Positions 4,283 to 52,260 of a stretch of DNA of 64,000 bases are shown in pieces. Below the pieces are notes generated by a model. The model was not told where the DNA came from. It worked only from the letters and a program-made list of their open reading frames with translations, and did not search any database. How positions within the stretch are numbered: position 1 is the stretch's first letter; the number at the start of each line of letters is the position of its first letter. The translations under genes and the position numbers were made by a program. Origin of the DNA: Nitrospira sp. CG24E (GTDB taxonomy: Bacteria > Nitrospirota > Nitrospiria > Nitrospirales > Nitrospiraceae). The DNA lies in the NCBI GenBank assembly GCA_002869895.2, contig NEWP02000009.1, forward strand, positions 24,601 through 88,600, given 5' to 3'.

Positions 4283-4310
4283 GAGAAAACGTAGAATGTC
4301 CCCGTTTTCT
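4283..4310. repeat. solo copy of the terminal motif GAAAACGTAGAATGTCCCCGTTTTCT (GTAGAATG..CCCCGTTTTC family)
   Basis: Same about 26-nt stem-loop motif as at 26122-26148, 27484-27510 and 29422-29448, and inverted at 5871-5895. It abuts the truncated 5' end of the Rhs tip. Confidence 0.75.
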
Positions 4311-4356
4311 GCACCAACGATTTATTTCACAAGACCCATTTGGAATCGCTGGTGGA

Positions 4357-4905
4357 GTGAATCCCTATTCCTATGCGCGTAATAATCCGATCCAGTTTAT
4401 GGATCCAGATGGATTATTTTCGGGAGGCAACCATAAGAAGATTGCGACGCGAGCACTGAAGGAGGAAGAATGCAGTGATAATTTTATTGAGAAAGCTGTT
4501 AATGCAAATGTGAAGGAAGATAAGGATCTTAAGGCCCCAACTCTTAAGCCTGAATGGGCCAATCGGCATGGACAGTTAGAATACGAAGGTCAACCGATAA
4601 ACCAGGCCCTAGCCAATTGTGCCAGCCGCGTGAATGAGCAGTTGGCGTTGGGAACAGCTGAAGGTCTCGGAAAGGCGATGCATTCAGTGGAGGATCCTTA
4701 TTCTCGTTCGCACCAATGGAAACCCGCACTTCCCGAACCTTCTATTCTGGATCCAGAACACTGGGGAGACTGGCTTGAGCATGCAATAGCAGATTACTTC
4801 CCCAGTGGTGATGAAATTGGTGCAGCCGTTAAAGAGGATATCAAGCTGATTCGTAAGTGGAAGGATCTGATGCGGAAAAAAGGAAAGGATGATTCCTGCC
4901 AATGA
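4357..4905 (+). CDS. orphan Rhs C-terminal tip plus toxin domain (Zn-dependent phospholipase C-like by motif)
   Basis: Frame is open from 4285. It reads RFISQDPFGIAGGVNPYSYARNNPIQFMDPDGL, the Rhs core-end motif, followed by a variable domain with GGNHKKIATRAL and LGKAMHSVEDPYSRSH. AT-richer than its flanks. No Rhs body lies upstream. Confidence 0.75.
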   Translation: MNPYSYARNNPIQFMDPDGLFSGGNHKKIATRALKEEECSDNFIEKAVNANVKEDKDLKAPTLKPEWANRHGQLEYEGQPINQALANCASRVNEQLALGTAEGLGKAMHSVEDPYSRSHQWKPALPEPSILDPEHWGDWLEHAIADYFPSGDEIGAAVKEDIKLIRKWKDLMRKKGKDDSCQ

Positions 4906-5750
4906 GCGGCGCACTCCTTTCAGCAGTCGTATTTTCTGCTGCGCTGATGAATGTGGAAGCGGATTCGCTGCCCTTTCTTGATCCGCCCTCTCCCTGGTGG
5001 CCGTCCTATTCCTACGCCTTTCGTGGAGGTAACTCCATCTTGCGTGAACAAGGAGAAAAGCTACTTCTTCAAGACTACAAGCGACCAGGGTATAGCGCGT
5101 ATGCGATCATCGCGCTTATCGACTTCGACTATGAAGGAGTCCGCGATACGCTAAGACTATTAGTCAGGGAACGGTGGGGAATCGTAGAGGAACAGGACAA
5201 CAGCACGGGGCCGATACGAGACGATTCAACGATGTATAAAGCAGAGGGCTACCACTCACCCATCAATATCATCAACGACAATCTCCGCTGGCCCATCCTG
5301 GGCCAAGGACTCACGCGGCTTGCCGGCCCGCTTGCTTCAGGAACGGCTCGAGAATATCAGCTGACGAGTCAGCCGTACAACAAGATTGAATCGTTGAACG
5401 GCTTTTCGCAGGTGGTGATTCGGGTCAGTGACGGGAATCCACTATTTGACTACCCTGTCACGATCTTGCAATTGACTCGCACCGACCGGTCTCGTGAATG
5501 GGCACGGACACACGACTTTCACGGCGTCATACCGCTTCCATACAAAGAGGAATGGTGGAGCGTGGGCATCGTCACCAGCTCAGAAATTGACCTCATCGAA
5601 GAGTTGAAGCGATCCATACCTGGGATTTCTGTTCGGTACTTTGTGGTTTCAGGAGGGTTTCTATCGGACCTTCCAGAAGAACGGTTAAAGAACGTAGAAG
5701 CAATCCGGAAGAAAATGGAAGAAGTCGTTGAACAACTTAACAAGCGATAA
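4902..5750 (+). CDS. putative cognate immunity protein of the Rhs-tip toxin
   Basis: ATGA start/stop overlap with the toxin ORF; 282 aa; no recognisable motif. The call is by position only. Confidence 0.5.
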   Translation: MSGALLSAVVFSAALMNVEADSLPFLDPPSPWWPSYSYAFRGGNSILREQGEKLLLQDYKRPGYSAYAIIALIDFDYEGVRDTLRLLVRERWGIVEEQDNSTGPIRDDSTMYKAEGYHSPINIINDNLRWPILGQGLTRLAGPLASGTAREYQLTSQPYNKIESLNGFSQVVIRVSDGNPLFDYPVTILQLTRTDRSREWARTHDFHGVIPLPYKEEWWSVGIVTSSEIDLIEELKRSIPGISVRYFVVSGGFLSDLPEERLKNVEAIRKKMEEVVEQLNKR

Positions 5751-5870
5751 TCCCATACCGAAATAGGGGTGCCTATGAATAGGGAAAGGAGAGGGAAGAT
5801 GAAGCTTTCGAAGTGTTCTGTTCTTGCTTTAGCCGGGTTATGTATTGTTGCGGCAAGTGTAATTAGCAGG

Positions 5871-5895
5871 GAAGAAAACGGGGACATTCTGCATT
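5871..5895. repeat. inverted solo copy of the GAAAACGGGG.CATTCT.C motif
   Basis: GAAGAAAACGGGGACATTCTGCATT is the reverse complement of the motif at 26122-26148. Confidence 0.65.
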
Positions 5896-5920
5896 GTTTG
5901 GACGACCAATCGGGATAGAC

Positions 5921-6028
5921 GGAATTACTCATGACAGCTGTGGCTGAAATAGAAACAAAGAGCGCTGAGCGACGTTGGGGCGCAATGGCTCGCGTGAGCG
6001 CTGACGCCAGCGGAAACTTTCTGTTCTC
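5921..6028. repeat. repeat Q (CTGAATTACTGATGGCTGCTGTGGCTGAAATAGAAACGAAGAGC...), copy 1
   Basis: About 105-nt near-duplicate of 6508-6613. Its first about 60 nt recur at 8260-8325. Confidence 0.85.
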
Positions 6029-6450
6029 GACTGTCCCGACGGGACCACAAGTCCTGCTAATCGATGGCCCGTCCGCACTCTATCCCGGAAGCCTGCCGGT
6101 GCAGACAACCATTCAACCCGGCATCGCAAACGTGTTGCCCTATCCGGTGTTCCTGCATGAAGTCGGACAGAACTATGTGCCGATTGCGCAGGGTGGGCAA
6201 ACCATCGTCGCGCCGCCCGATATTCCTGGCTTTAGCATGTTGATTCCGGCAGGCACCACGATCACCGGCTGGGACGGCCAGCCTAATGTGAAGGTCTCGG
6301 TGGTGCCGGTGCCCAACGATCGCTTGCCGATTCCGCAATTGCCGGCAAACGTCCCGGCCAAACAGGTCTACATGTTCAACTTCGGCAAACCGGGTGGCGG
6401 CTACCCGAGTCGGCCGATCCCCATCATCATGCCGGGGAAGAAAAAGGTGG
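5985..6450 (+). pseudogene. fragment of the N-terminal region of an Rhs-family / carboxypeptidase-regulatory-like wall protein
   Basis: ARVSADASGNFLFSTVPTGPQVLLIDG... reads as a beta-sandwich-type sequence. Both ends of ORF 5931-6491 are made of repeat sequence (Q on the left, P on the right). Confidence 0.45.
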
Positions 6451-6452
6451 GG

Positions 6453-6496
6453 GAAGAAAAAGGTGTCAGGAACCATTTTCCTCATGAATGAGAAAA
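6453..6496. repeat. repeat P (GGAAGAAAAAGGTGTCAGGAACCATTTTCCTCATGAATGAGAAA), palindrome-containing REP-like unit, copy 1
   Basis: Identical 44-mer at 8371-8414. Contains the imperfect palindrome TTTCCTCATGAATGAGAAA. A related AAAAAGGTGTCAGACAC sits at about 29546. Confidence 0.85.
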
Positions 6497-7285
6497 GTAT
6501 GGACAGTCTGAATTACTGATGGCTGCTGTGGCTGAAATAGAAACGAAGAGCCCGAGCGAAGTTGGGACGCGATGGCTTGCGTCACCGCCGACGCTAGCGG
6601 GAACTTCCTGTTCACCAGGGAGAAGAAGAAAAGGGGCCAGCAACTTTATGTTCGGGGGGCGCCCGCGTCGGCGCAACGTGGATTCCAGTCCCAGCGTGGC
6701 AGCGAGTTGTTGTTGCCACTCGGGTGCGCCAAACGGTTGTTGACGGTTCACACAGGTGCGGAGTGCGGTGAGTTCATGATCAACGAGCGGCTGATCCATC
6801 CACGTCGTCCAATCCTCTGGCAGCGGAATCGGCGACGGATCGGTGAGGTGGGGCCGGTGCAAACTCGACCAGGGCCATTGGCTGGTGTGTGCAACCAGCC
6901 CGGCACGGACCGGATTGCGGAGCACATAGCGCAGGACCGTGAGGAGATGGCCGTCCTCTTGAATGGGGAAGCTTTTGAAACGCCCTTGCCACACATGCCC
7001 CTGACTGCGGTAGTGCCGATGATAGCGGCGGACATGACTGGTCATCCACCACTGCATGAAGGGACTGAGCGCGGCGTCCGTCAGAGGTTGCACGACGAGA
7101 TGAAAATGATTCGGCATCAGACAGAAGCCCAAGAGTGTGACGGGATGCTTGGCTTTCGCCGTGGCGAGCAGGTCGAGGAAGGCGGTGTAGTCACCCTCCT
7201 TGTGGAAGACCGCAGCACCGCCGTTCCCGCGATTCAGGACATGGTAGGCGTGCCCGGCCACTTGACCGCGAGGAATCCGAGGCAT
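6482..7285 (-). CDS. IS200-like Y1 (HUH) transposase, REP-associated RayT type
   Basis: MPRIPRG..YHVLNRGN, HUH motif in LMPNHFHLVVQP, catalytic-Tyr region LRYVLRNPVRAGLV, then LGLESTLRRRGRP. The last about 45 codons read through repeats P/Q, so the true C-terminus is uncertain. Confidence 0.8.
   Translation of the reverse strand: MPRIPRGQVAGHAYHVLNRGNGGAAVFHKEGDYTAFLDLLATAKAKHPVTLLGFCLMPNHFHLVVQPLTDAALSPFMQWWMTSHVRRYHRHYRSQGHVWQGRFKSFPIQEDGHLLTVLRYVLRNPVRAGLVAHTSQWPWSSLHRPHLTDPSPIPLPEDWTTWMDQPLVDHELTALRTCVNRQQPFGAPEWQQQLAATLGLESTLRRRGRPPNIKLLAPFLLLPGEQEVPASVGGDASHRVPTSLGLFVSISATAAISNSDCPYFSHS
6508..6613. repeat. repeat Q, copy 2
   Basis: Near-identical to 5921-6028. Overlaps the 3' end of the transposase ORF. 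Confidence 0.85.
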
Positions 7286-7605
7286 GGCGTGAACAGGGTA
7301 GGGGAAATCGGGGGCTCAGGCAACAGAAAAGTAGCCTTGTATCTTACTTCGGTGTTCCTTCACGATATGTCTTCCGGTAACCCAGACGTGATAGACCGAC
7401 GTAGCCGAGGTCTTCAAAGACCGTGGGACAGCGCGGGTCGTCACGTCTACATTCTGAACAAGCCCGAACAGTTGCGTGGGCCATTGAGCCCGCATCGCAA
7501 GGCTGGGACACAGAATTGGGAGGCCGGGGTCTCTGGTCCGTCAGTTGTGGCATGCGTGCCTCTGAGTACGCAGGGGCGCCTCTGCGTGCTTGACAGTCAA
7601 GAAAG

Positions 7606-7917
7606 TTGCTGTCCCCTGCGCTCCCCCATGTAGTTGTGAGGGGTGGAACTAAGGATCTCCCACCGCCAGGTCAAACATTTTCTGGCGCAGCCGGACCAAC
7701 CTTAAATGATGCAGCAGCTGGAGTACCACATAACCAAATAAGAGCGACTACGGCTGGTGAGATCAGAGCTAGTGGTGGAACAGTAGTTCATGCTCCTGAA
7801 CCAACCAGGTCAGGAGCCATTAATGACAAGCATGTAAATATTTGTTCCGGATCTGGCCCTTGTCCTTTCGGGCCACTTCAACCCAATCCTGTGCCAAAGT
7901 CAAGGAGAGTGCAATGA
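7606..7917 (+). CDS. orphan polymorphic-toxin C-terminal fragment (family unknown)
   Basis: Markedly AT-richer block; ATGA overlap with a small downstream ORF; no N-terminal delivery domain. The start codon is arbitrary (frame opens just upstream). Confidence 0.4.
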   Translation: MLSPALPHVVVRGGTKDLPPPGQTFSGAAGPTLNDAAAGVPHNQIRATTAGEIRASGGTVVHAPEPTRSGAINDKHVNICSGSGPCPFGPLQPNPVPKSRRVQ

Positions 7918-8231
7918 GTAACAGAAAAGAAATCTGGCTCCAAATCGAATACGGTGAATTTCACGACATCCCTAGAGCATTTGTCGTGAATTGGAATGGT
8001 GAGTCGTACTTCTTTGACTGTGCCTTTAGTGGTGCAATAGATGACTATCCTGATGAATTTATCGTTTACAAATTGCGCCAAAATATTTCACGCAATGGAA
8101 ATACACTTCCTTGGACGGAGCTTCACACGTATGGAGAACGTGTTGGGTCTGTCAGAACTCAGGATGTAGTGTTTGATGAGTCTAAAAGAAAAGCAATTCG
8201 CGGGGATGTGTTTGACACATTCGTAATTTGA
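7914..8231 (+). CDS. putative immunity protein (105 aa)
   Basis: AAGGAGAG Shine-Dalgarno 6 nt before the ATG at 7914, which overlaps the toxin stop. Sequence is acidic and aromatic (YFFDCAFSGAIDDYPDEFIVY). Same low GC as the toxin fragment. Confidence 0.55.
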   Translation: MSNRKEIWLQIEYGEFHDIPRAFVVNWNGESYFFDCAFSGAIDDYPDEFIVYKLRQNISRNGNTLPWTELHTYGERVGSVRTQDVVFDESKRKAIRGDVFDTFVI

Positions 8232-8259
8232 TAACGTGAATTAGCAAAATAGGGACAGG

Positions 8260-8325
8260 CTGAATTACTGATGGCTGCTGTGGCTGAAACAGAAACGAAG
8301 AGCGCCGAGCGACGGGGGAATGCGA
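8260..8325. repeat. repeat Q, copy 3 (short)
   Basis: CTGAATTACTGATGGCTGCTGTGGCTGAAACAGAAACGAAGAGCGCCGAGCGACGGGGG. Confidence 0.85.
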
Positions 8326-8370
8326 TGTCCCGTCCGCGTGTCCGCGATGGAAAGGCACCGACCGTTGGGT

Positions 8371-8414
8371 GGAAGAAAAAGGTGTCAGGAACCATTTTCC
8401 TCATGAATGAGAAA
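8371..8414. repeat. repeat P, copy 2; flanked by the 26-nt direct repeat TGTCCCGTCCGCGTGTCCGCGATGGA (8326-8351 and 8428-8453)
   Basis: Exact 44-mer match to 6453-6496. Confidence 0.85.
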
Positions 8415-8658
8415 GATGGAGACAGGCTGTCCCGTCCGCGTGTCCGCGATGGAACGGCACTGAGCTTTGAGAGAGTTTTTCGACAAATGGCCCGGCTGAA
8501 GCAGCATCATGATGGGTTTTCTGAGCGCTGAAATGTCTCGAGATGAAATGACGATGACTGGTTTTTCTTCAAAAACACGCGTGCGACCAACGATGAACGT
8601 ACTTCGGCCCCGCCGCGTCTGCTCGCGGCCCGGACAGCGCTGGTCTACTTCCCTGTAC

Positions 8659-12686: not shown

Positions 12687-12791
12687 CCGGTCTATCTGGT
12701 TTCTTTGGTTCATCTGGCTTGTTTGGTTTATCTGGTTGGCTGGTTAGTTTCGTTCAACCAAATAAACAAACAAACCAAATAGACCAACCAA
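12687..12791. repeat. phased-unit long hairpin repeat (core TTCAACCAAATAAAC)
   Basis: GGTCTATCTGGTTTCTTTGGTTCATCTGG...GTTCAACCAAATAAACAAACAAACCAAATAGACCAACC, between the convergent htrA and EF-G-like genes. Confidence 0.85.
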
Positions 12792-14891: not shown

Positions 14892-14918
14892 GGGGCCCTC
14901 CTTTAACTGGATGCTGAT

Positions 14919-15015
14919 ATTTGGTTTGTTTGGTTTGTCTCGTTTGTTTGGTTGAAAGCAACTAACCAGATGAACCAAATCAACCAAATAAACAAAACAA
15001 ACCAGATGAACCAGG
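14919..15015. repeat. phased-unit long hairpin repeat
   Basis: TTTGGTTTGTTTGGTTTGTCTCGTTTGTTTGGTTGAAAGC...AACCAAATAAACAAAACAAACCAGATGAACCAGG, between the radC stop and the EF-G-like start. Confidence 0.85.
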
Positions 15016-18640: not shown

Positions 18641-18650
18641 CAGAAGAGAA

Positions 18651-18745
18651 CCGTTATTTAGTTTATTTCGTTTGTTTCGTTTGTTTGGTTGAATGACACT
18701 AGCCAGATAAACTAAATCAACCAAATTAACAAAACAAACTAGGCC
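18651..18745. repeat. phased-unit long hairpin repeat
   Basis: CCGTTATTTAGTTTATTTCGTTTGTTTCGTTTGTTTGGTTGAATGAC...AACCAAATTAACAAAACAAACTAGG. Confidence 0.85.
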
Positions 18746-18763
18746 CATTGGAGGGAATGAATC

Positions 18764-25939: not shown

Positions 25940-26148
25940 CGGAGTGCGTATCTCGTGAAGCGTGAAGCGTATCGCGCAGGAAGTTTCGAGTTTCGGGTTT
26001 CTAGTTTCAGGCACAGACGGTTTAGGCAACATGAAACCTGGAACTTGCAACCAGAAACCCTAGACGATGAAAGCCAAACGATGAGAATATATTCAGTCGG
26101 CGGCTGCAGGAGTGAGACATCAGAAAAGTAGAATGGCCCCGTTTTCTT
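25928..26148. repeat. about 220-nt repeat ending in GTAGAATGGCCCCGTTTTC, copy 1
   Basis: Collinear with 29228-29448: CGGCTCT.AC..G.GCGTATCTCGTGAAGCGTGAA.CGTATCGCGCAGGA.GTTTCGAGTTTC.GGTTTCTAGTTT....AAAAGTAGAATGGCCCCGTTTTCTT. Confidence 0.85.
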
Positions 26149-26306
26149 TGCCTCGAACACGACGGCTTCAAGCCGGGCGAACGCGCAGGCGAATTCACAT
26201 AGAATATGAGCCAGGCGACGTAAGCCGGCATTCTTGCCTTTTACCCTTCGAGGGTCTATTCAGACTGAAGAAGTTCCGTTGCGGTCGTGCATGGAGAGCA
26301 ATTGCT

Positions 26307-26636
26307 ATGCTGAGTGTAGAGCAGGATCCTTTGTCGTTCGTTGAGCAAAACGCCTGCGAAGTGGCGTGCACTCTTCTGGCATCTGAACCACGGGTCAAGG
26401 TGTTTCTCTTTGGTTCAAGCGCGACCGAGCGTGCCAGCTCCCGATCGGACATCGATCTGGGTATCGATCTCGGTCACGCGATTGCACCGGAGATGCTTGC
26501 GTCATTACGCGATGCGTTCGATGAGTTGCCGATCATGCAGAAAGTCGACATTGTCGATTTTTCCGTACTCGACGAAGCGTTTAAAGCAGGGGCCCTTCAG
26601 CAAATCGAGAGTGTCTATGAGCGACAAGCTGCATAA
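26307..26636 (+). CDS. minimal nucleotidyltransferase (MNT), partner of an HI0074-type HEPN
   Basis: VFLFGSSATERASSRSDIDLGIDL motif; GGAGAG SD; 109 aa. Confidence 0.8.
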   Translation: MLSVEQDPLSFVEQNACEVACTLLASEPRVKVFLFGSSATERASSRSDIDLGIDLGHAIAPEMLASLRDAFDELPIMQKVDIVDFSVLDEAFKAGALQQIESVYERQAA

Positions 26637-27210
26637 TTTGTTAAGGCTTCCAGGTCTTGCGCTGACGCGCCTTGATGGGGCGTTAGCTCAGCCTGTCAAC
26701 GAATTCGTTCGTGATTCTGCCATCCAACGGTTTGAGTTTACCTTTGAATTATTCTGGAAGAGCCTGAAGGCATATGCCGAGGAGTCGGGGGTAGAAGCCT
26801 ATTGACCGAGAGACAGCGTCAGGACGGCATTTCAGCTAACAGGGTGCTGAAAAAGTCCGCCAGCGTCGTTCTCGCATCGTTCAGACCCTCAACGTACCCC
26901 AGAGGGTACGCTTCGGCCCTTCACTCACTGCGGCCTCGCTGGACAGTCTTTTTGAGCACCCTGGAGGTGAATTCTCCTGGTATGCCTCGCGCTCACCGTC
27001 GAAGTTCTTGCGCGTCAAACATAGTTTTCCAGCAGCCTGATCGGGGTGATCCAGGAACACCCCGATTGGCTTCGGATGTTGCAAGATCGCAACCTCACCA
27101 GCCATACCTATAACGAAGCGACGGCTAAATCGATCTACTCCCATCTCCCGGCCTATTGCCGCCTTATCCGCCAGGCGCATGCTGAGTTGTCTCAGAGGGT
27201 CACGCGCTAG
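26617..27210 (+). pseudogene. HI0074-family HEPN (nucleotidyltransferase substrate-binding protein), inactivated by an in-frame TGA (26803-26805) and a 201-bp insertion (26845-27045)
   Basis: N-part ..RDSAIQRFEFTFELFWKSLKAYAEESGVEAY*PRDSVRTAFQLTG; C-part VIQEHPDWLRMLQDRNLTSHTYNEATAKSIY...*. Both are in the same frame and together make a normal-length protein. Confidence 0.8.
26845..27045 (+). mobile_element. MITE-like structured repeat inserted in the HEPN gene; possible GGGTG target duplication
   Basis: Flanked by ACAGGGTG|CTGAAAAAG... and ...GATCGGGGTG|ATCC. Termini GGGTGCTGAAAAAG and CTTTTTGAGCACCC are complementary. Internal hairpin GTACCCcagaGGGTAC. Homologous to 21590-21778. Confidence 0.75.
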
Positions 27211-27350
27211 TTGTTTGGCAGCTCTCGCTCTATCTTTATGGCGAGCGAGGCCTCTTCAAGCCTGGCGAACTTGCCGCACAGTTCCGGTCAAAGTCCGTTC
27301 CCAACTCACCTACGCGTGGCGCAGCAGTCACCATCCATCGAAGAATGAGT

Positions 27351-27770
27351 CTAAAAAAGACACCCGGTACATCTGCTCTTTCCCGAACTTACACCGGAAT
27401 ACAATTCCCAAACAGAATACCCAGGCAACGAGAGCCGAGCGACGCAAAGCCAAGCAGTGGCTGTCTGGCAGGACTGACGCTCAGATAAGTAGAATGACCC
27501 CGTTTTCTTTCTGCCAGAATGTCCCCCTTCTTTAATTCGGCGCATCTTCCAAAATCCGGACGGCAGCTTCCCCAATCCCAGACGCACCAACCCTGCGCGG
27601 GCCAGACTGCGAAGATGTGCGGACTCCTTTTCGCCACGGTGGGGCAACGGCACCAGCTTGGCAATCGGTTTGCCTCGCTCCATGACGATGACTTCTTCTC
27701 CGGCTTTGACTATAGCCAGACAGGCACTCAATGTCGCCTTCAAGGCAGACACCGCTGCAGACTTCATCAT
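27351..27770 (-). CDS. Phd/YefM-type antitoxin (VapB-like); its C-terminus runs into a repeat and no toxin gene follows
   Basis: GGAGG SD; MMKSAAVSALKATLSACLAIVKAGEEVIVMERGKPIAKLVPLP...LARAGLVRLGLGKLPSGFW. After about residue 85 the codons are repeat sequence. Confidence 0.65.
   Translation of the reverse strand: MMKSAAVSALKATLSACLAIVKAGEEVIVMERGKPIAKLVPLPHRGEKESAHLRSLARAGLVRLGLGKLPSGFWKMRRIKEGGHSGRKKTGSFYLSERQSCQTATAWLCVARLSLPGYSVWELYSGVSSGKSRCTGCLF
27424..27510. repeat. partial copy (3' third) of the 220-nt repeat
   Basis: GGCAACGAGAGCCGAGCGACG...CTGGCAGGACTGACGCTCAGATAAGTAGAATGACCCCGTTTTCT compared with 29368-29448. Confidence 0.75.
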
Positions 27771-27946
27771 CAGACCTCCATGGTCATGTCCAATGTGACC
27801 ACGATAGTCTTCTTTATGATGCTGATCGTGCAAGCCGATGAGGACAATTGCGACGCACAGGCTCCTTGTCGCTTCTCGTCATCTACGATGGCCCGCTGTC
27901 ACCGTCTTTCGTGAGATCGTGCGAGTCTTTCCATCAGGAGAGACTG

Positions 27947-28471
27947 TTATCGTCCTGTCATTCGCTGACAAAACAGGTCCACCGTTTTATTGAATACAAA
28001 CAACATCGTGTCTTGTGGAGAGGCGGACACAGCACTCTCAGCCGCTGCCGCGATCGCTTCTGAAGCGACCTGGAATCGTCCGGCTACCCAAGCCGCATCG
28101 TCCAGATCCAACTCAGTCCCCCTCCGCAACTTCGCAATGATGAAATCGGTCGGGGCGAGCAACCGAATCCGCAGCTTCGGCCGATCGACCAACATGGACG
28201 CTCGCTCACGGTACCCCGGCGGCATTGCGATGACGGACCAGCCGGAAATGTTGGCGCCCAAGTCGGCGGGTACGTGGCGGTCTGTCAGGAATTGTATCAG
28301 CCCGGTCAAATCACCGATAAATTCGCCATCGATGTCCTGAGTGGTTCGATCCGGTGCGCCATATGCTTGAAGAGCAAGCCCCCCCACGAGGATCAGATCG
28401 ACGGAGCCGCCGGTCACGTGGACGTATTCGGTCAGCAGAGAAATCAGTTGATCAGTGGTGAGCTGAGACAA
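27947..28471 (-). CDS. DUF6036-like nucleotidyltransferase-fold protein
   Basis: VDLILVGGLALQAYGAPDRTTQDIDGEF and DFIIAKLRRGTELDLDDA patterns. TTG start; 20-nt overlap with the upstream ORF. Confidence 0.55.
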   Translation of the reverse strand: MSQLTTDQLISLLTEYVHVTGGSVDLILVGGLALQAYGAPDRTTQDIDGEFIGDLTGLIQFLTDRHVPADLGANISGWSVIAMPPGYRERASMLVDRPKLRIRLLAPTDFIIAKLRRGTELDLDDAAWVAGRFQVASEAIAAAAESAVSASPQDTMLFVFNKTVDLFCQRMTGR

Positions 28472-28769
28472 AACGGAGCGCCTCCATCACCGTGCGGTAG
28501 TCACGCTGGTCGATCGGGCCGGGGTCTGGGGGAAGTGGCGTGCGGACGACCAGTGTGGTGATGAGCGAACGATACGTGGTGAACCAGCGGCAGGCTTTCT
28601 GGTAGGCGGCTTGAACCGCCGTGTCGTGAAGCCATGGGGTGAGATCGAGTTGATCGTTCACCAGAATTTCGAGCCACAGCAAGCGCTTCCCTCGCTCGTC
28701 AGCCAGGGCGTCCTTCATCGAGGTGACGCCGGCATAGGCAGAAAGCAATTTAAACTGATCGGTGGCCAT
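28452..28769 (-). CDS. hypothetical protein, upstream partner of the DUF6036-like gene
   Basis: 105-aa ORF overlapping the downstream gene. No motif recognised. Confidence 0.4.
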   Translation of the reverse strand: MATDQFKLLSAYAGVTSMKDALADERGKRLLWLEILVNDQLDLTPWLHDTAVQAAYQKACRWFTTYRSLITTLVVRTPLPPDPGPIDQRDYRTVMEALRFVSAHH

Positions 28770-29227
28770 GAGGTTGTCGTGCCTACGGTGTGATTGACCG
28801 TGCAGATGGCAGTATAGGAGGCACGAGAGAGAGTTGCAAGAAATGGAAAAGGATTGTTATGCGTGCGGTCTAGCGAAGCCGCATGCTGGACAGCGAGGAC
28901 ACCATCCACGACCACTTCAGGCACGTTCGAAGGAAGACCGGCGCCATGAATCGTGGCGGCATCATCTCCCGTGTGCTGGGCCGAGCAGACGTCTACCGCA
29001 ATGGAGCCATCGTTGGCAAGGTGCGTCCTTCGGAGCGGTCGATCCGTTAAGTCAGCGACTTCATTCCTGCACAAAAGAGCATGGCCCTATCTTGGTTCGC
29101 ATCCCCCCCTCCCCCGCGCGGGCACCGCTGCGCTTTTGATCTTCGAATAACGAGGCACCCTGGACTATGGCGCCCTTCGTCTCCAAGGTGTCAAGTCAAG
29201 CAACGACCCCATCACCAGCTCCCCGGG

Positions 29228-29448
29228 GAGCGGCTCTGACAGGCGCGTATCTCGTGAAGCGTGAAACGTATCGCGCAGGAGGTTTCGAGTTTCTGGTTTC
29301 TAGTTTTACGTTCGGAGGTTTGAGTAATGCACAACCCGAAACTCCTAACCAGAAACATCCGGCAACAAGAGACGAACGACGAGAATCTATTCAGCGGGTG
29401 ACTGGCAGGACTGAATCATCACAAAAGTAGAATGGCCCCCGTTTTCTT
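29228..29448. repeat. about 220-nt repeat ending in GTAGAATGGCCCCCGTTTTC, copy 2
   Basis: See 25928-26148. Confidence 0.85.
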
Positions 29449-29680
29449 GGTTCCAAGGTTGTTTGTTATCTTTCAGGGAAGGGGCTTAGTGATCTCCCAC
29501 TGCGCAGATCTTTCTCACCCGCCCACCCCGGCGCGCCAAGGAAAAGAAAAAGGTGTCAGACACTCAGTTTCCGCTGCACGCCTGCTCATTCGCACCCCTC
29601 TGGCCCAGCACCCATTCAGGCCTGACTGCGGCCGTCGAGCGAGGTTATAGATAATCCCTCTAAGCTCACTCGTTTGCTTC

Positions 29681-38280: not shown

Positions 38281-38390
38281 GCGAGACGGGCGAGACAAGC
38301 GAGACTGGTCTATCTGGTCTGTCCTGTCTATCTAGTCGATCTGGATCTCCACTTGGTCTAGTTCAACCAAATAAACGAGATAGACCACCA
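38281..38390. repeat. phased-unit long hairpin repeat overlapping the galE 3' end
   Basis: GAGACTGGTCTATCTGGTCTGTCCTGTCTATCTAGTCGATCTGG...GTTCAACCAAATAAACGAGATAGACCACC. Confidence 0.85.
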
Positions 38391-40369: not shown

Positions 40370-40448
40370 GCAATCTGGCTACACTATACGAAACATCCAC
40401 TCCTGCAGGAAAGACTGGTTCAGCGATTTTACAAGGCAGAGTTTCGAT

Positions 40449-40545
40449 CCGGTCTATTTGGTTGATCTGGTCTATCTCGTTTATTTGGTTGAACCAGACT
40501 GAATGAAGATTGCGATAGACGAGACAGACTAGATAGACCGGACAG
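40449..40545. repeat. phased-unit long hairpin repeat
   Basis: CCGGTCTATTTGGTTGATCTGGTCTATCTCGTTTATTTGGTTGAACCAGAC...GATAGACGAGACAGACTAGATAGACCGG. Confidence 0.85.
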
Positions 40546-40562
40546 ACATGACCCCGGCCTGT

Positions 40563-46159: not shown

Positions 46160-46362
46160 GGATGGAGTCTGATTGATCTCCCACTGCGCGCGTCCAACGA
46201 AGGCTGGTTCATTTGGTCTATTTCGTCTATCTGGTTTGTCTGGTTGATCTGACTGGAAATTCATCCGGAAGAACCAGACAGACCAGATAGACCAGCCGAC
46301 CAGACAGACAAACCCTGACGCGTTGCGCGAGCACAGGAGATCATCAGACTCCATCCCCCCAC
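46160..46362. repeat. composite: palindromic element (as at 29681-29785) with a phased-unit hairpin (46203-46314) nested in its loop
   Basis: Outer arms GATGGAGTCTGATTGATCTCCCACTGCGCGCGTCCAACG / CGTTGCGCGAGCACAGGAGATCATCAGACTCCATC. Inner GGTTCATTTGGTCTATTTCGTCTATCTGGTTTGTCTGGTT...AACCAGACAGACCAGATAGACCAGCC. Confidence 0.85.
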
Positions 46363-52157: not shown

Positions 52158-52260
52158 CCGGTTTGCCTGGTCTATTCGGTCTATCTGGTTTATCCGGTTA
52201 CGTCCGTTCAACCAAATAAACGCGACAGACAAGACAGACCGAATAGACCAGATAGACCTT
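52158..52260. repeat. phased-unit long hairpin repeat
   Basis: CCGGTTTGCCTGGTCTATTCGGTCTATCTGGTTTATCCGGTTACGTCCGTTCAACCAAATAAACGCGACAGACAAGACAGACCGAATAGACCAGATAGACC, between convergent genes. Confidence 0.85.

Follow-up and report, generated by a model that had tools for sequence, protein, structure and literature searches.

A probable decayed TIRtron among the end motifs of its own family in an accessory patch of a Nitrospira genome

Previous studies describe TIRYT genes as RayT-like genes flanked by terminal inverted repeats (TIRs), with gene and repeats forming units called TIRtrons (Di Nocera, De Gregorio, Rocco 2013, BMC Genomics 14:522; PMC3733652). In the parts of that study used here, the TIRs lie at similar distances from their genes, share the motif GGGGWSAS, and can make up moderately abundant families whose members stand alone, in dimers, or in groups. 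Quentin et al. (2018, BMC Genomics 19:475; PMC6006769) assign most TIRYTs to TnpA-Y1 subclass 2.1, for which their Table 1 lists the motifs NH[YF]H, W[EQ], and Y[IV]xLNP as the signature, together with an 'SS' tail and proteins of 238 aa in the median; the sections of that study drawn on here report no repetitive extragenic palindromes (REPs) adjoining subclass 2.1 genes. In the excerpts used here of Bertels et al. (2017, GBE 9:2110; PMC5581495), group 1 of the REP-associated tyrosine transposases (RAYTs) is the largest group and, bar the IS200-like group 6, the one most like insertion sequences (ISs). Here we analyse a 64,000-nt stretch of the genome of Nitrospira sp. CG24E (3.45 Mb, 99 contigs, 55.7% G+C), namely contig C89:24601-88600, hereafter the window, which carries a transposase gene apparently of this kind amid short repeats. 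The segment 6626-7347 of the window is quite likely a decayed TIRtron, composed of a TIRYT-type gene and the remnants of both TIRs. Contigs of this genome are labelled C, fetched homologous loci L, and genomes of relatives G; window coordinates carry no contig label, and the features are collected in Table 1.

The transposase and the inverted repeats around its homologues

The open reading frame (ORF) at 6482-7285 on the minus strand comprises 267 codons and reads NHFHLV and LRYVLRNPVRAGL. The original prediction had taken it for an HUH/Tyr transposase of the RayT type rather than a classical IS200/IS605 TnpA, and our searches agree with both parts of that assignment. The protein matches Pfam Y1_Tnp ('Transposase IS200 like') with 49.6-51.9 bits, and its single NCBIfam family match is REP_Tyr_transpos (NF047646 equivalog) at 79.0 bits versus a cut-off of 80, a borderline score below the curated cut-off. 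A sequence search of the PDB returned 4ER8, the E. coli TnpA-REP, as the sole match at E<=0.01 (E=1.9e-6). The AlphaFold model, built on 50 homologues, reached a predicted local distance difference test score (pLDDT) of 93.3, and a fold search with this model again ranked 4ER8 best (E=2.4e-9, 171 columns), followed by the ISDra2, IS608, and IS200 transposases, with ISDra2 and IS608 TnpA at E=1e-6 to 1e-4 over 102-130 columns. The catalytic motifs are in place on the Y1 HUH fold: NHFH occupies residues 59-62, H60, H62, and Y120 are invariant across the 50 homologues, and N124 is kept in at least 90% of them, in the contexts VWQGRF and RYVLRNP, which gives a tyrosine motif of the form YxxxNP and not YxxxQ. 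The C-terminal extension measures 75 aa, and a helical tail is confidently modelled at residues 159-204. A Pfam scan found no Bac_DnaA_C, HTH_23, or HTH_28 domain in the window protein; a DnaA_C-like tail occurs in the longer relatives L008 and L009. Judged by sequence and predicted model, the window protein is nearer to E. coli TnpA-REP/RayT than to the IS200/IS608 TnpA.

The 214-aa coding sequence (CDS) within this ORF contains NHFH, WQ, the Tyr motif YVLRNP, WSSL, and the C-terminal RRRGRP. Members of the family have 214-232 aa; close public relatives (72-95% identity) have 214-216 aa, the 95%-identical ones 214 aa, and are labelled 'putative transposase', 'REP-associated tyrosine transposase', or 'IS200-like'. 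The family is very large: of 8,000 candidates scored, at least 7,794 protein clusters matched at E<=1e-10. Genes of relatives stop at ...NIK-TAG or ...EK-TAG, and where the locus L112 reads AAG TAG the window reads AAG TTG. The ORF runs on for 53 codons to 267 aa because this change from TAG to TTG in the downstream TIR abolished the stop codon. For annotation, the 267-aa ORF should be read as a 214-aa protein plus a read-through tail.

We fetched 80 homologous loci, 78 of them scorable, from Planctomycetota, Nitrospirota, Acidobacteriota, Omnitrophota, candidate phyla, and some Proteobacteria. When the 150 nt ahead of each gene were compared with its stop region, the top-scoring inverted repeat had a median score of 18 versus 9 in control regions, and a clear inverted pair of 18-25 nt was present at ~60 of the 78 loci. 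On the upstream side, 33-41 nt separate the end of the repeat from the ATG; the downstream copy begins 10-35 nt past the conserved RGRP and overlaps the stop codon. Nearly all repeats hold a GGGG(A/T)(C/G)A(C/G)-like core, and they fall into type A (AAAAGGGGACAGGCTACTTTT), type B (AAAAGGGGACATTCTACTTTT), type C (GAAAAGGGGACATCACTGAT), type D (AAAAGGTGTCAGGAACCTTTT), type E (AAAAGGGGTCGGGAGTCTTTT), and further types, several of which are self-complementary. Intact elements of the family measure ~0.73 kb, with 20-25-nt repeats of the form A4-5G-GGGG(A/T)(C/G)A(C/G)...-CT4-5.

The clades of the protein carry distinct repeat types. On the protein tree the types change 13 times, versus 25.9 times in shuffles, and none of 200 shuffles gave a number as low; the window gene groups with the type-A genes L024 and L022. 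The locus L002, whose protein is 68% identical, has a perfect 22-nt inverted type-B pair (AAAAAGTAGAATGTCCCCTTTT) on both sides, and L004 (46% identity) lies between inverted copies of AAACGGTGTCAGGAACAGTTTTC, the core of repeat P described below. Type-D TIRs flank L004, L051, L066, L073, L096, and others. The 21-nt type-B sequence forms the inverted repeats of L031 from Planctomycetia, L037 from Gemmataceae, L041 from Planctomycetaceae, and L023 from Nitrospirae, and since it flanks homologous genes in unrelated phyla, it travels with the element.

The gene and its repeats are multi-copy in some genomes. In a genome with a type-C gene, the exact type-C core was counted 51 times, with many pairs 720 nt apart; a second type-C genome has 5 copies, and five further genomes have 0-2. 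Gene matches in the 51-copy genome number 33, of which at least 8 are full length (227-229 aa). For type D, 21 core copies were found in the cognate genome, chiefly as tight inverted doublets, and the type-A core occurs only 3 times in one complete Nitrospira genome, two of these flanking the gene. The type-C, type-D, and type-A counts thus indicate that the element acts as an insertion sequence in some genomes and is a lone copy in others. The planctomycete genome G081, which holds L054, contains at least 8 full-length, near-equal type-C elements with repeat cores 720 nt apart (for example, at C1:41159-41891 of that genome), along with many fragments and solo repeats, and would serve well as a natural source of an element that appears active.

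Homologues were found in 15 of 41 relatives of the Nitrospira genome; the closest, with 66-68% identity, lie in other families of the same order, and homologues are often pseudogenes. In the Nitrospira genome itself, the window gene and its paralogue on C1 are joined by one more Y1 gene, of the classical IS200 type, on C28, which makes three; a fragment lies on C23. The TIRYT family in this genome is mostly dead or dying.

The window element, its decayed ends, and repeats P and Q

Both ends of the window element are decayed, the upstream TIR being eroded and the downstream one mutated. The downstream TIR is a type-A variant, named A', where the window reads AAG TTG CTG GCC CCT TTT; in L112, whose protein is 95% identical, the gene ends AAC ATA AAG TAG, with the TAG within the downstream repeat. 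On the upstream side the inner half of the TIR, GGCTACTTTT, is intact at 7325-7336, 39 nt ahead of the ATG, and the GGGGAC half is gone, whereas L112 has an intact AAAAGGGGACAGGCTACTTTTCTGTTGCC... at the same place, that is, a type-A repeat, 39 nt, and then the ATG. The DNA similarity between the window and L112 is 93% and is confined to 6640-7337. The nearest relatives, L112, L022, and L024, carry the TIR GGGGACAG, of which the window has only remnants. The A' variant also occurs at C23:25362, C27:39920, C18:611, and window 7602-7616, and the window gene's own end type (A/A') has ~6 copies in the genome. A breakpoint at the repeat centre, after GTAGCCT, is hinted at by L112, L113, and the window; small deletions or insertions explain the pattern equally, and no such breakpoint is claimed.

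A repeated non-coding segment adjoins the upstream TIR on its outer side, with further copies at C27:39827-39934, C27:1309-1584, and C88:189-325; the first of these lacks the 181-nt stretch 7367-7547. Rfam gave sub-threshold full-length matches to sX15, a Xanthomonadaceae small RNA, at window 7367-7547, C27:1399-1544, and C88:177-329 (27-29.5 bits versus a gathering score of 55). These three are paralogous copies, mutually homologous and hence no independent support for one another, and the sX15 identity was treated as chance; the segment is nonetheless a non-coding unit that is conserved. The home plasmid of sX15 carries it immediately upstream of a gene for an IS3-family transposase.

The element is accompanied by the repeats P and Q and by a direct repeat, all of which the original prediction had placed around the transposase. 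P is present as two exact 44-nt copies, the first one base off its predicted position (6452-6495 versus 6453-6496); the predicted palindrome TTTCCTCATGAATGAGAAA exists as well, in an imperfect form with CTCAT/ATGAG arms and a 2-nt spacer. The similarity of the two copies extends to 62 nt at 89% identity, and in each a short imperfect inverted repeat comes after a type-D core. Genome-wide, P has these 2 copies, both in the window, and no type-D gene cognate to the P core was found in this genome. The three predicted Q copies were also found, and the starts that had been given for them (5921, 6508, and 8260) lie inside the copies: matches at 5908-5992, 6496-6580, and 8248-8332 are 64-79% identical to a reference copy. 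The Q core has 5 copies in the genome, which have ~55-60 nt in common starting GAAAATAGGGACAGGCTGAATTAC. The direct repeat at 8326/8428 is exact over 27 nt rather than 26 (8326-8352, 8428-8454) and reaches 42 nt at 90% identity.

The first and second Q copies align over 114 nt at 83% and share the junction with the first 30 nt of an Rhs-type fragment, so one was copied from the other. The Q start follows P in both P copies; therefore, the P-Q junction predates the duplication. The third Q copy, direct repeat a, the second P copy, an 11-nt Q start, and direct repeat b resemble a local duplication with nesting. None of P, Q, and the 27-nt repeat is a dispersed family; they are low-copy segmental duplications of local extent that include orphan end motifs. 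Q was also considered as the end of an IS110-type element; this was rejected, resting as it does on one case, a Q copy 36 nt from an IS110-like C-terminal fragment on C30. That fragment of an IS110-family transposase (C30:18791-19302) is cut on its 5' side by a type-E doublet.

The locus sits in an accessory patch with small cassettes and gutted genes around it. The ORF at 5931-6491 is a fragment of a large Rhs-type protein and matches residues 23-159 inside the 1376-aa open frame of a relative.

Table 1. Coordinates of the transposase element, end motifs, and repeats (window positions unless a contig is named)
Feature	Position	Strand	Remarks
TIRYT-type Y1 (HUH/Tyr) transposase CDS	6644..7285	-	214 aa, the family's normal length
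Read-through tail of ORF	6482..6643	-	53 codons, via downstream TIR and second Q copy into first P copy; outside family protein
Downstream TIR, type-A variant (A')	6626..6648	-	sense AAAGTTGCTGGCCCCTTTTCTTC; carries TAG>TTG
Upstream TIR, eroded	7325..7347	+	AGAAAAGTAGCC-TTGTATCTTAC; inner half only
Repeated non-coding segment outside upstream TIR	7337..7617	+	ends in A' motif 7602-7616, inverted relative to downstream TIR
Repeat P, copy 1	6452..6495	+	44 nt exact with copy 2; core 6456-6480 GAAAAAGGTGTCAGGAACCATTTTC, type-D TIR-like
Repeat P, copy 2	8371..8414	+	
Repeat Q, copy 1	5908..6026	+	type-A-like start; runs into first 30 nt of Rhs-type gene fragment
Repeat Q, copy 2	6496..6613	+	directly after P copy 1; cut at 6613/6614 by downstream end of transposase element
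Repeat Q, copy 3	8248..8327	+	GGGACAGGCTGAATTACTG...
Direct repeat, copy a	8326..8367	+	follows Q copy 3
Direct repeat, copy b	8428..8469	+	follows P copy 2 and first 11 nt of a Q; related sequence C1:133712-133768
Type-B TIR	4283..4310	+	20 nt before it match 3' end of C1 pseudogene; Rhs core end starts abruptly after, ...RFISQDPFG
Type-B TIR, inverted	5871..5895	-	GCAG, not GTAG; outer side cuts signal-peptide ORF 5769-5918 after ~30 codons; inner side as C30:18543-18606
Type-B TIR	26122..26148	+	15 nt upstream of break where translocated MNT/HEPN cassette begins
Type-B TIR	27484..27510	+	
Type-B TIR	29422..29449	+	one extra C
Cut junctions	4310-4318; 5871; 26148-26163; C1:147229; C23:25453		Rhs core; signal-peptide ORF; MNT/HEPN cassette; lipase-like ORF; TIRYT gene, respectively
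Type-B inverted doublets	C14:93285/93328; C28:10875/10939; C23:25453/25562; C30:18400/18575		
TIRYT pseudogene, other clade	C1:147291-147953		50% identical to window protein; in-frame TGA and TAG
TIRYT fragment	C23		31-39 codons
Classical IS200-type gene	C28:18499-18855		122.7 bits
Orphan Rhs tip and presumed immunity gene	4357-5750		
TGGTYTRTY hairpins	12688-12785; 14913-15013; 18650-18750; 38306-38387; 40441-40548; 46205-46293; 52159-52258		

The dispersed type-B motif

A further repeat had been predicted as a stem-loop with five copies in the window, carrying the GTAG tetranucleotide as the hallmark of REPs processed by RayT. All five copies lie where they had been reported, two of them in deviating form (Table 1), and the motif has the type-B consensus rGAAAtGyAGAATGTCCCCGTTTTCTcc. 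We found 35-37 copies in the genome versus 0-7 in shuffled or reversed controls. The over-representation expected of the repeats was thus present for this motif and absent for P and Q, for which the original prediction had named such an outcome as a refutation. The stem-loop itself was not borne out: when 37 copies were folded as DNA and compared with shuffles, the mean z was -0.08, with no extra stability, and a few copies have 8-10-bp stems when flanking bases are included, most having none. Nor did GTAG prove to be a hallmark. At position 20, before AG, C stands in 19 of the 36 aligned copies, T in 13, and a different base in 4, which limits GTAG to at most 13 copies, GCAG and TCAG being more frequent. 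Where type-A and type-B repeats have GTAG, it consists of a G plus the gene's own TAG stop inside the downstream repeat; it is not a conserved guide of the enterobacterial kind at a hairpin foot. What stands of the proposed REP/RayT system is the RayT-like nature of the protein and the relation between the repeats and the transposase family, the type-B motif, the P core, and the Q start each resembling TIRs that flank homologous genes elsewhere; its kind is that of a TIRtron, not a REPtron.

The type-B copies cluster in ~10 islands of toxin-antitoxin and toxin-immunity genes. Same-orientation arrays with 0.5-2 kb spacing lie between toxin-antitoxin modules at C45:3881-8288, C14:118492-120736, and window 26122-29422, and at least 5 inverted doublets are 25-150 nt apart. 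The inner, gene-facing flank is common to another copy in 11 of the 36 copies, the outer flank in 0 of 36; this is the pattern expected of the termini of inserted elements and of internally deleted derivatives. Type-B copies at 147229-147259 (minus) and 147957-147990 (plus) enclose the C1 pseudogene, and the abundant type-B motif is the cognate end of this pseudogene, not of the window gene, which has a different end type. The TIRYT family has left ~35 type-B ends in this genome, plus a few A', D (the P core), E, and type-A-like ones (the Q start), mostly in accessory islands. Filled versus empty sites were sought for the motif doublets, and no clean target site or target duplication was found among them; the doublet C14:93285/93328 sits in a gutted gene. 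That gene (C14:93096-93416), of the four-helix-bundle '23S rRNA intervening sequence' type, retains its N-terminal 50 codons, followed by the inverted type-B doublet. Two other identities for the motif were rejected on inspection: as a promoter, its spacing misfits extracytoplasmic function (ECF) sigma and sigma-54 by eye, and as an attC-like site, its 26 nt are without R''/R' boxes.

At the five junctions examined, a gene or cassette is cut off 0-15 nt from the outer edge of the motif. These cases are an anecdotal basis for a cassette-shuffling reading, in which the end motifs might be joints where TIRYT-type enzymes cut single-stranded DNA and rejoin it to unrelated sequence, building and shuffling arrays of orphan Rhs tips, lipase-like toxins, and toxin-antitoxin cassettes in Nitrospira islands. 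The unique outer flanks of all 36 type-B copies, the inner flanks common to 11 of them, and the same-orientation arrays would also allow it. We hold this reading to be speculative and rather doubtful; if true, such joints would be a tyrosine-HUH counterpart of integron-like cassette assembly. The assignment of the motif accounts for a ~26-nt family that marks breaks in the toxin-immunity and toxin-antitoxin islands of Nitrospira.

The MNT/HEPN cassette is present at window 26163-27311, at C2:146307-147165, and at L103, L104, and L105. In C2 and three relatives it lies at the 3' end of a conserved MtnA-like gene (...ITGIITERG, then VFKPGE), bounded there by a ~35-nt direct repeat of the gene end, as would be seen if a cassette had integrated and restored that end; the window holds a second, translocated copy from which the MtnA-like gene body is gone. 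A segment of ~205 nt (26838-27042) interrupts the window cassette, is not in the copies on C2, L103, and L104, and belongs to a very abundant repeat with many copies in each of 61 of 61 same-genus genomes searched. The region C1:145300-149500 (L018) holds tandem pairs of lipoprotein and lipase-like (GYSLGGH) genes, with the TIRYT pseudogene between pairs and the first lipase-like ORF truncated at a type-B motif.

Other repeats of the genome include type-E inverted doublets, GGGGTCGGGAGTCATT ... AATGACTCCCGACCCC, which form long hairpins at C27:1583/1634 and C30:18742/18793; there are at least 15 type-E-like copies in the genome, though no type-E gene. Long hairpins of phased 9-nt units (TGGTYTRTY) contain the genome's most abundant 12-mers. 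A short, hairpin-like repeat family, GGGGACTGGCTCCGCCGTCTGCGGCGGTGCC, occupies ~20 sites (e.g., C12:22517, C26:14540, and C40:85) and is unrelated to the transposase finding.

Alternative explanations and comparison with known systems

In a true REP/RayT system, or REPtron, a domesticated RayT would read a GTAG guide at the foot of a hairpin and spread REPs, of which P and Q would be further classes. Such a system would agree with the best match to TnpA-REP in both structure and sequence, with the NCBIfam REP_Tyr_transpos match, with ~35 motif copies where controls have 0-7, and with inverted doublets 25-90 nt apart that recall hairpin-forming REP doublets (REPINs). However, the NCBIfam score is under the curated cut-off, the type-B motif shows no hairpin stability beyond shuffles, and GTAG is restricted to a minority of copies and doubles as a stop codon. 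P and Q have just 2 and 5 copies, and the portions of PMC6006769 used here report no REPs next to subclass 2.1 genes. The homologues are patchy and often pseudogenes, unlike vertically kept single-copy RAYTs, and the whole gene-bearing element is multi-copy and IS-like in a planctomycete genome. We consider a REPtron unlikely. It is very unlikely, in our estimate, that the type-B motif is primarily a Nitrospira host sequence, protein-binding or regulatory, that is kept by selection and was targeted or captured by transposase elements. Its presence in 24 of 24 same-genus genomes searched, 14 of them without a TIRYT match, would suit such an origin, as would a highly conserved 26-nt core with no hairpin and the same-orientation arrays between toxin-antitoxin modules; yet in unrelated phyla the same 21-nt sequence brackets homologous genes, copies have inner but never outer flanks in common, and they lie at gene breaks, not at fixed distances from gene starts.

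A classical IS200/IS605 element, with a TnpA acting on its own directly oriented subterminal hairpins and with the nearby repeats unrelated to it, is extremely unlikely. Pfam Y1_Tnp does match the window protein, IS608 and ISDra2 TnpA are significant by fold, and the genome does hold one classical IS200-type gene, at 122.7 bits. The window protein, however, scores just 49.6-51.9 bits on Y1_Tnp; it has NHFH and YxxxNP in place of DH[VI]H and YxxxQ, 214 aa with a 75-aa C-terminal extension versus ~150 aa, and no IS200-type PDB chain among its sequence matches at E<=0.01. There is no tnpB-sized ORF near the window gene, and the ends are inverted repeats, not direct hairpins.

Several points weigh against the decayed-TIRtron reading as well. 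The end motifs show no extra folding stability, in contrast to the DNA that TnpA-REP and IS608 TnpA act on. The coupling between gene and motif abundance is loose, because G038 has an intact gene yet only its two flanking motif copies, and genomes without a detectable TIRYT gene have up to 19: the same-genus genomes have 2-19 copies (controls 0-4), those without a TIRYT match included, with 19 in G003. In the co-occurrence analysis over 40 relatives, same-genus genomes with a gene match have ~11 copies versus ~7 in those without, a difference that genome size confounds and that is not decisive. The Q start resembles the type-A repeat at 13 of 17 positions, which is suggestive only. The window gene is intact save for its tail, and 'decayed' refers to the ends, not the enzyme. 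The cutting and joining step is proposed by analogy to TnpA-REP and IS608 TnpA: the enzyme would bind its own end motif on single-stranded DNA, cut it via the tyrosine to form a 5'-phosphotyrosine link, and rejoin the DNA, by which the element or motif-bounded pieces would be moved. Since the end motifs are without stable hairpins, recognition may differ from that of TnpA-REP and IS608 TnpA.

Among known systems, the IS200/IS605 TnpAs (IS608, ISDra2) have the catalytic fold in common with the window protein and presumably the same single-strand cut-and-rejoin chemistry. They differ in their DH[VI]H and YxxxQ motifs, their ~150-aa length, and their directly oriented subterminal hairpins, and they are often accompanied by a tnpB partner and form high-identity multi-copy elements. 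Miniature inverted-repeat transposable elements (MITEs) and solo IS terminal repeats share the solo and paired end motifs, the common inner and unique outer flanks, and the non-autonomous doublets of 80-190 nt; in contrast, the enzyme here is an HUH tyrosine and not a DDE transposase, and a target-site duplication was not recognised. In the case of E. coli TnpA-REP (RayT, YafM; 4ER8), the REPs and bacterial interspersed mosaic elements (BIMEs), and the Pseudomonas REPIN-RAYT systems (subclasses 2.2 and 2.5), the likeness comprises the HUH and single-Tyr core with YxxxNP, a gene bracketed by an inverted short motif that is also dispersed, and some inverted doublets. However, their REPs fold into stable G+C-rich hairpins, bear a conserved GT[AG]G at the 5' foot, and reach hundreds of copies, and their RAYT genes are single-copy and vertical, whereas here the gene is patchy, duplicated, or pseudogenised and the motif has ~35 copies. 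REPtrons in the strict sense (subclasses 2.2, 2.4, 2.5, and 2.7) are single-copy and vertically inherited; this genome holds two diverged TIRYT copies and a fragment.

The comparison with TIRYTs is the closest. Differences are that the window copy is without the Bac_DnaA_C/HTH Pfam domain of many subclass 2.1 members and has a shorter helical tail, that its own repeats are decayed, and that Nitrospira is not among the species described; the parts of the TIRYT accounts used here do not state that repeat types track the protein tree or that a repeat TAG serves as the stop codon. With respect to the subclass 2.1 signature, NHFH agrees with the HuH motif, WQ with W[EQ], and YVLRNP exactly with the class 2 YxxxNP and roughly with Y[IV]xLNP (R, not L, at the fourth position); the family length of 214-232 aa compares with a median of 238 aa, and WSSL is present. 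Among RayT-like proteins, TIRYTs (subclass 2.1, RAYT group 1) form the largest group, and the repeats at fixed gene distances, the repeat types that follow the protein tree, and the many intact copies in some planctomycete genomes define matched enzyme-substrate pairs for an HUH tyrosine transposase that would handle ends without stable hairpins. The case as a whole is of the already described, though little-studied, TIRYT/TIRtron kind, here decayed and amid the end motifs of its own family, with little new for the window itself. Shared with the described TIRYTs are a RayT-like Y1 protein of ~215-240 aa with NH[YF]H, W[EQ], and Yxx(L)NP, fixed-distance TIRs with GGGGWSAS, a downstream repeat that overlaps the 3' end of the gene, moderately abundant repeats as singles, dimers, and groups, and a patchy taxonomic distribution with duplicates in some genomes. 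Going by motifs and architecture, the best-fitting published category is thus TIRYT/TIRtron, equal to subclass 2.1 and RAYT group 1, rather than REPtron.

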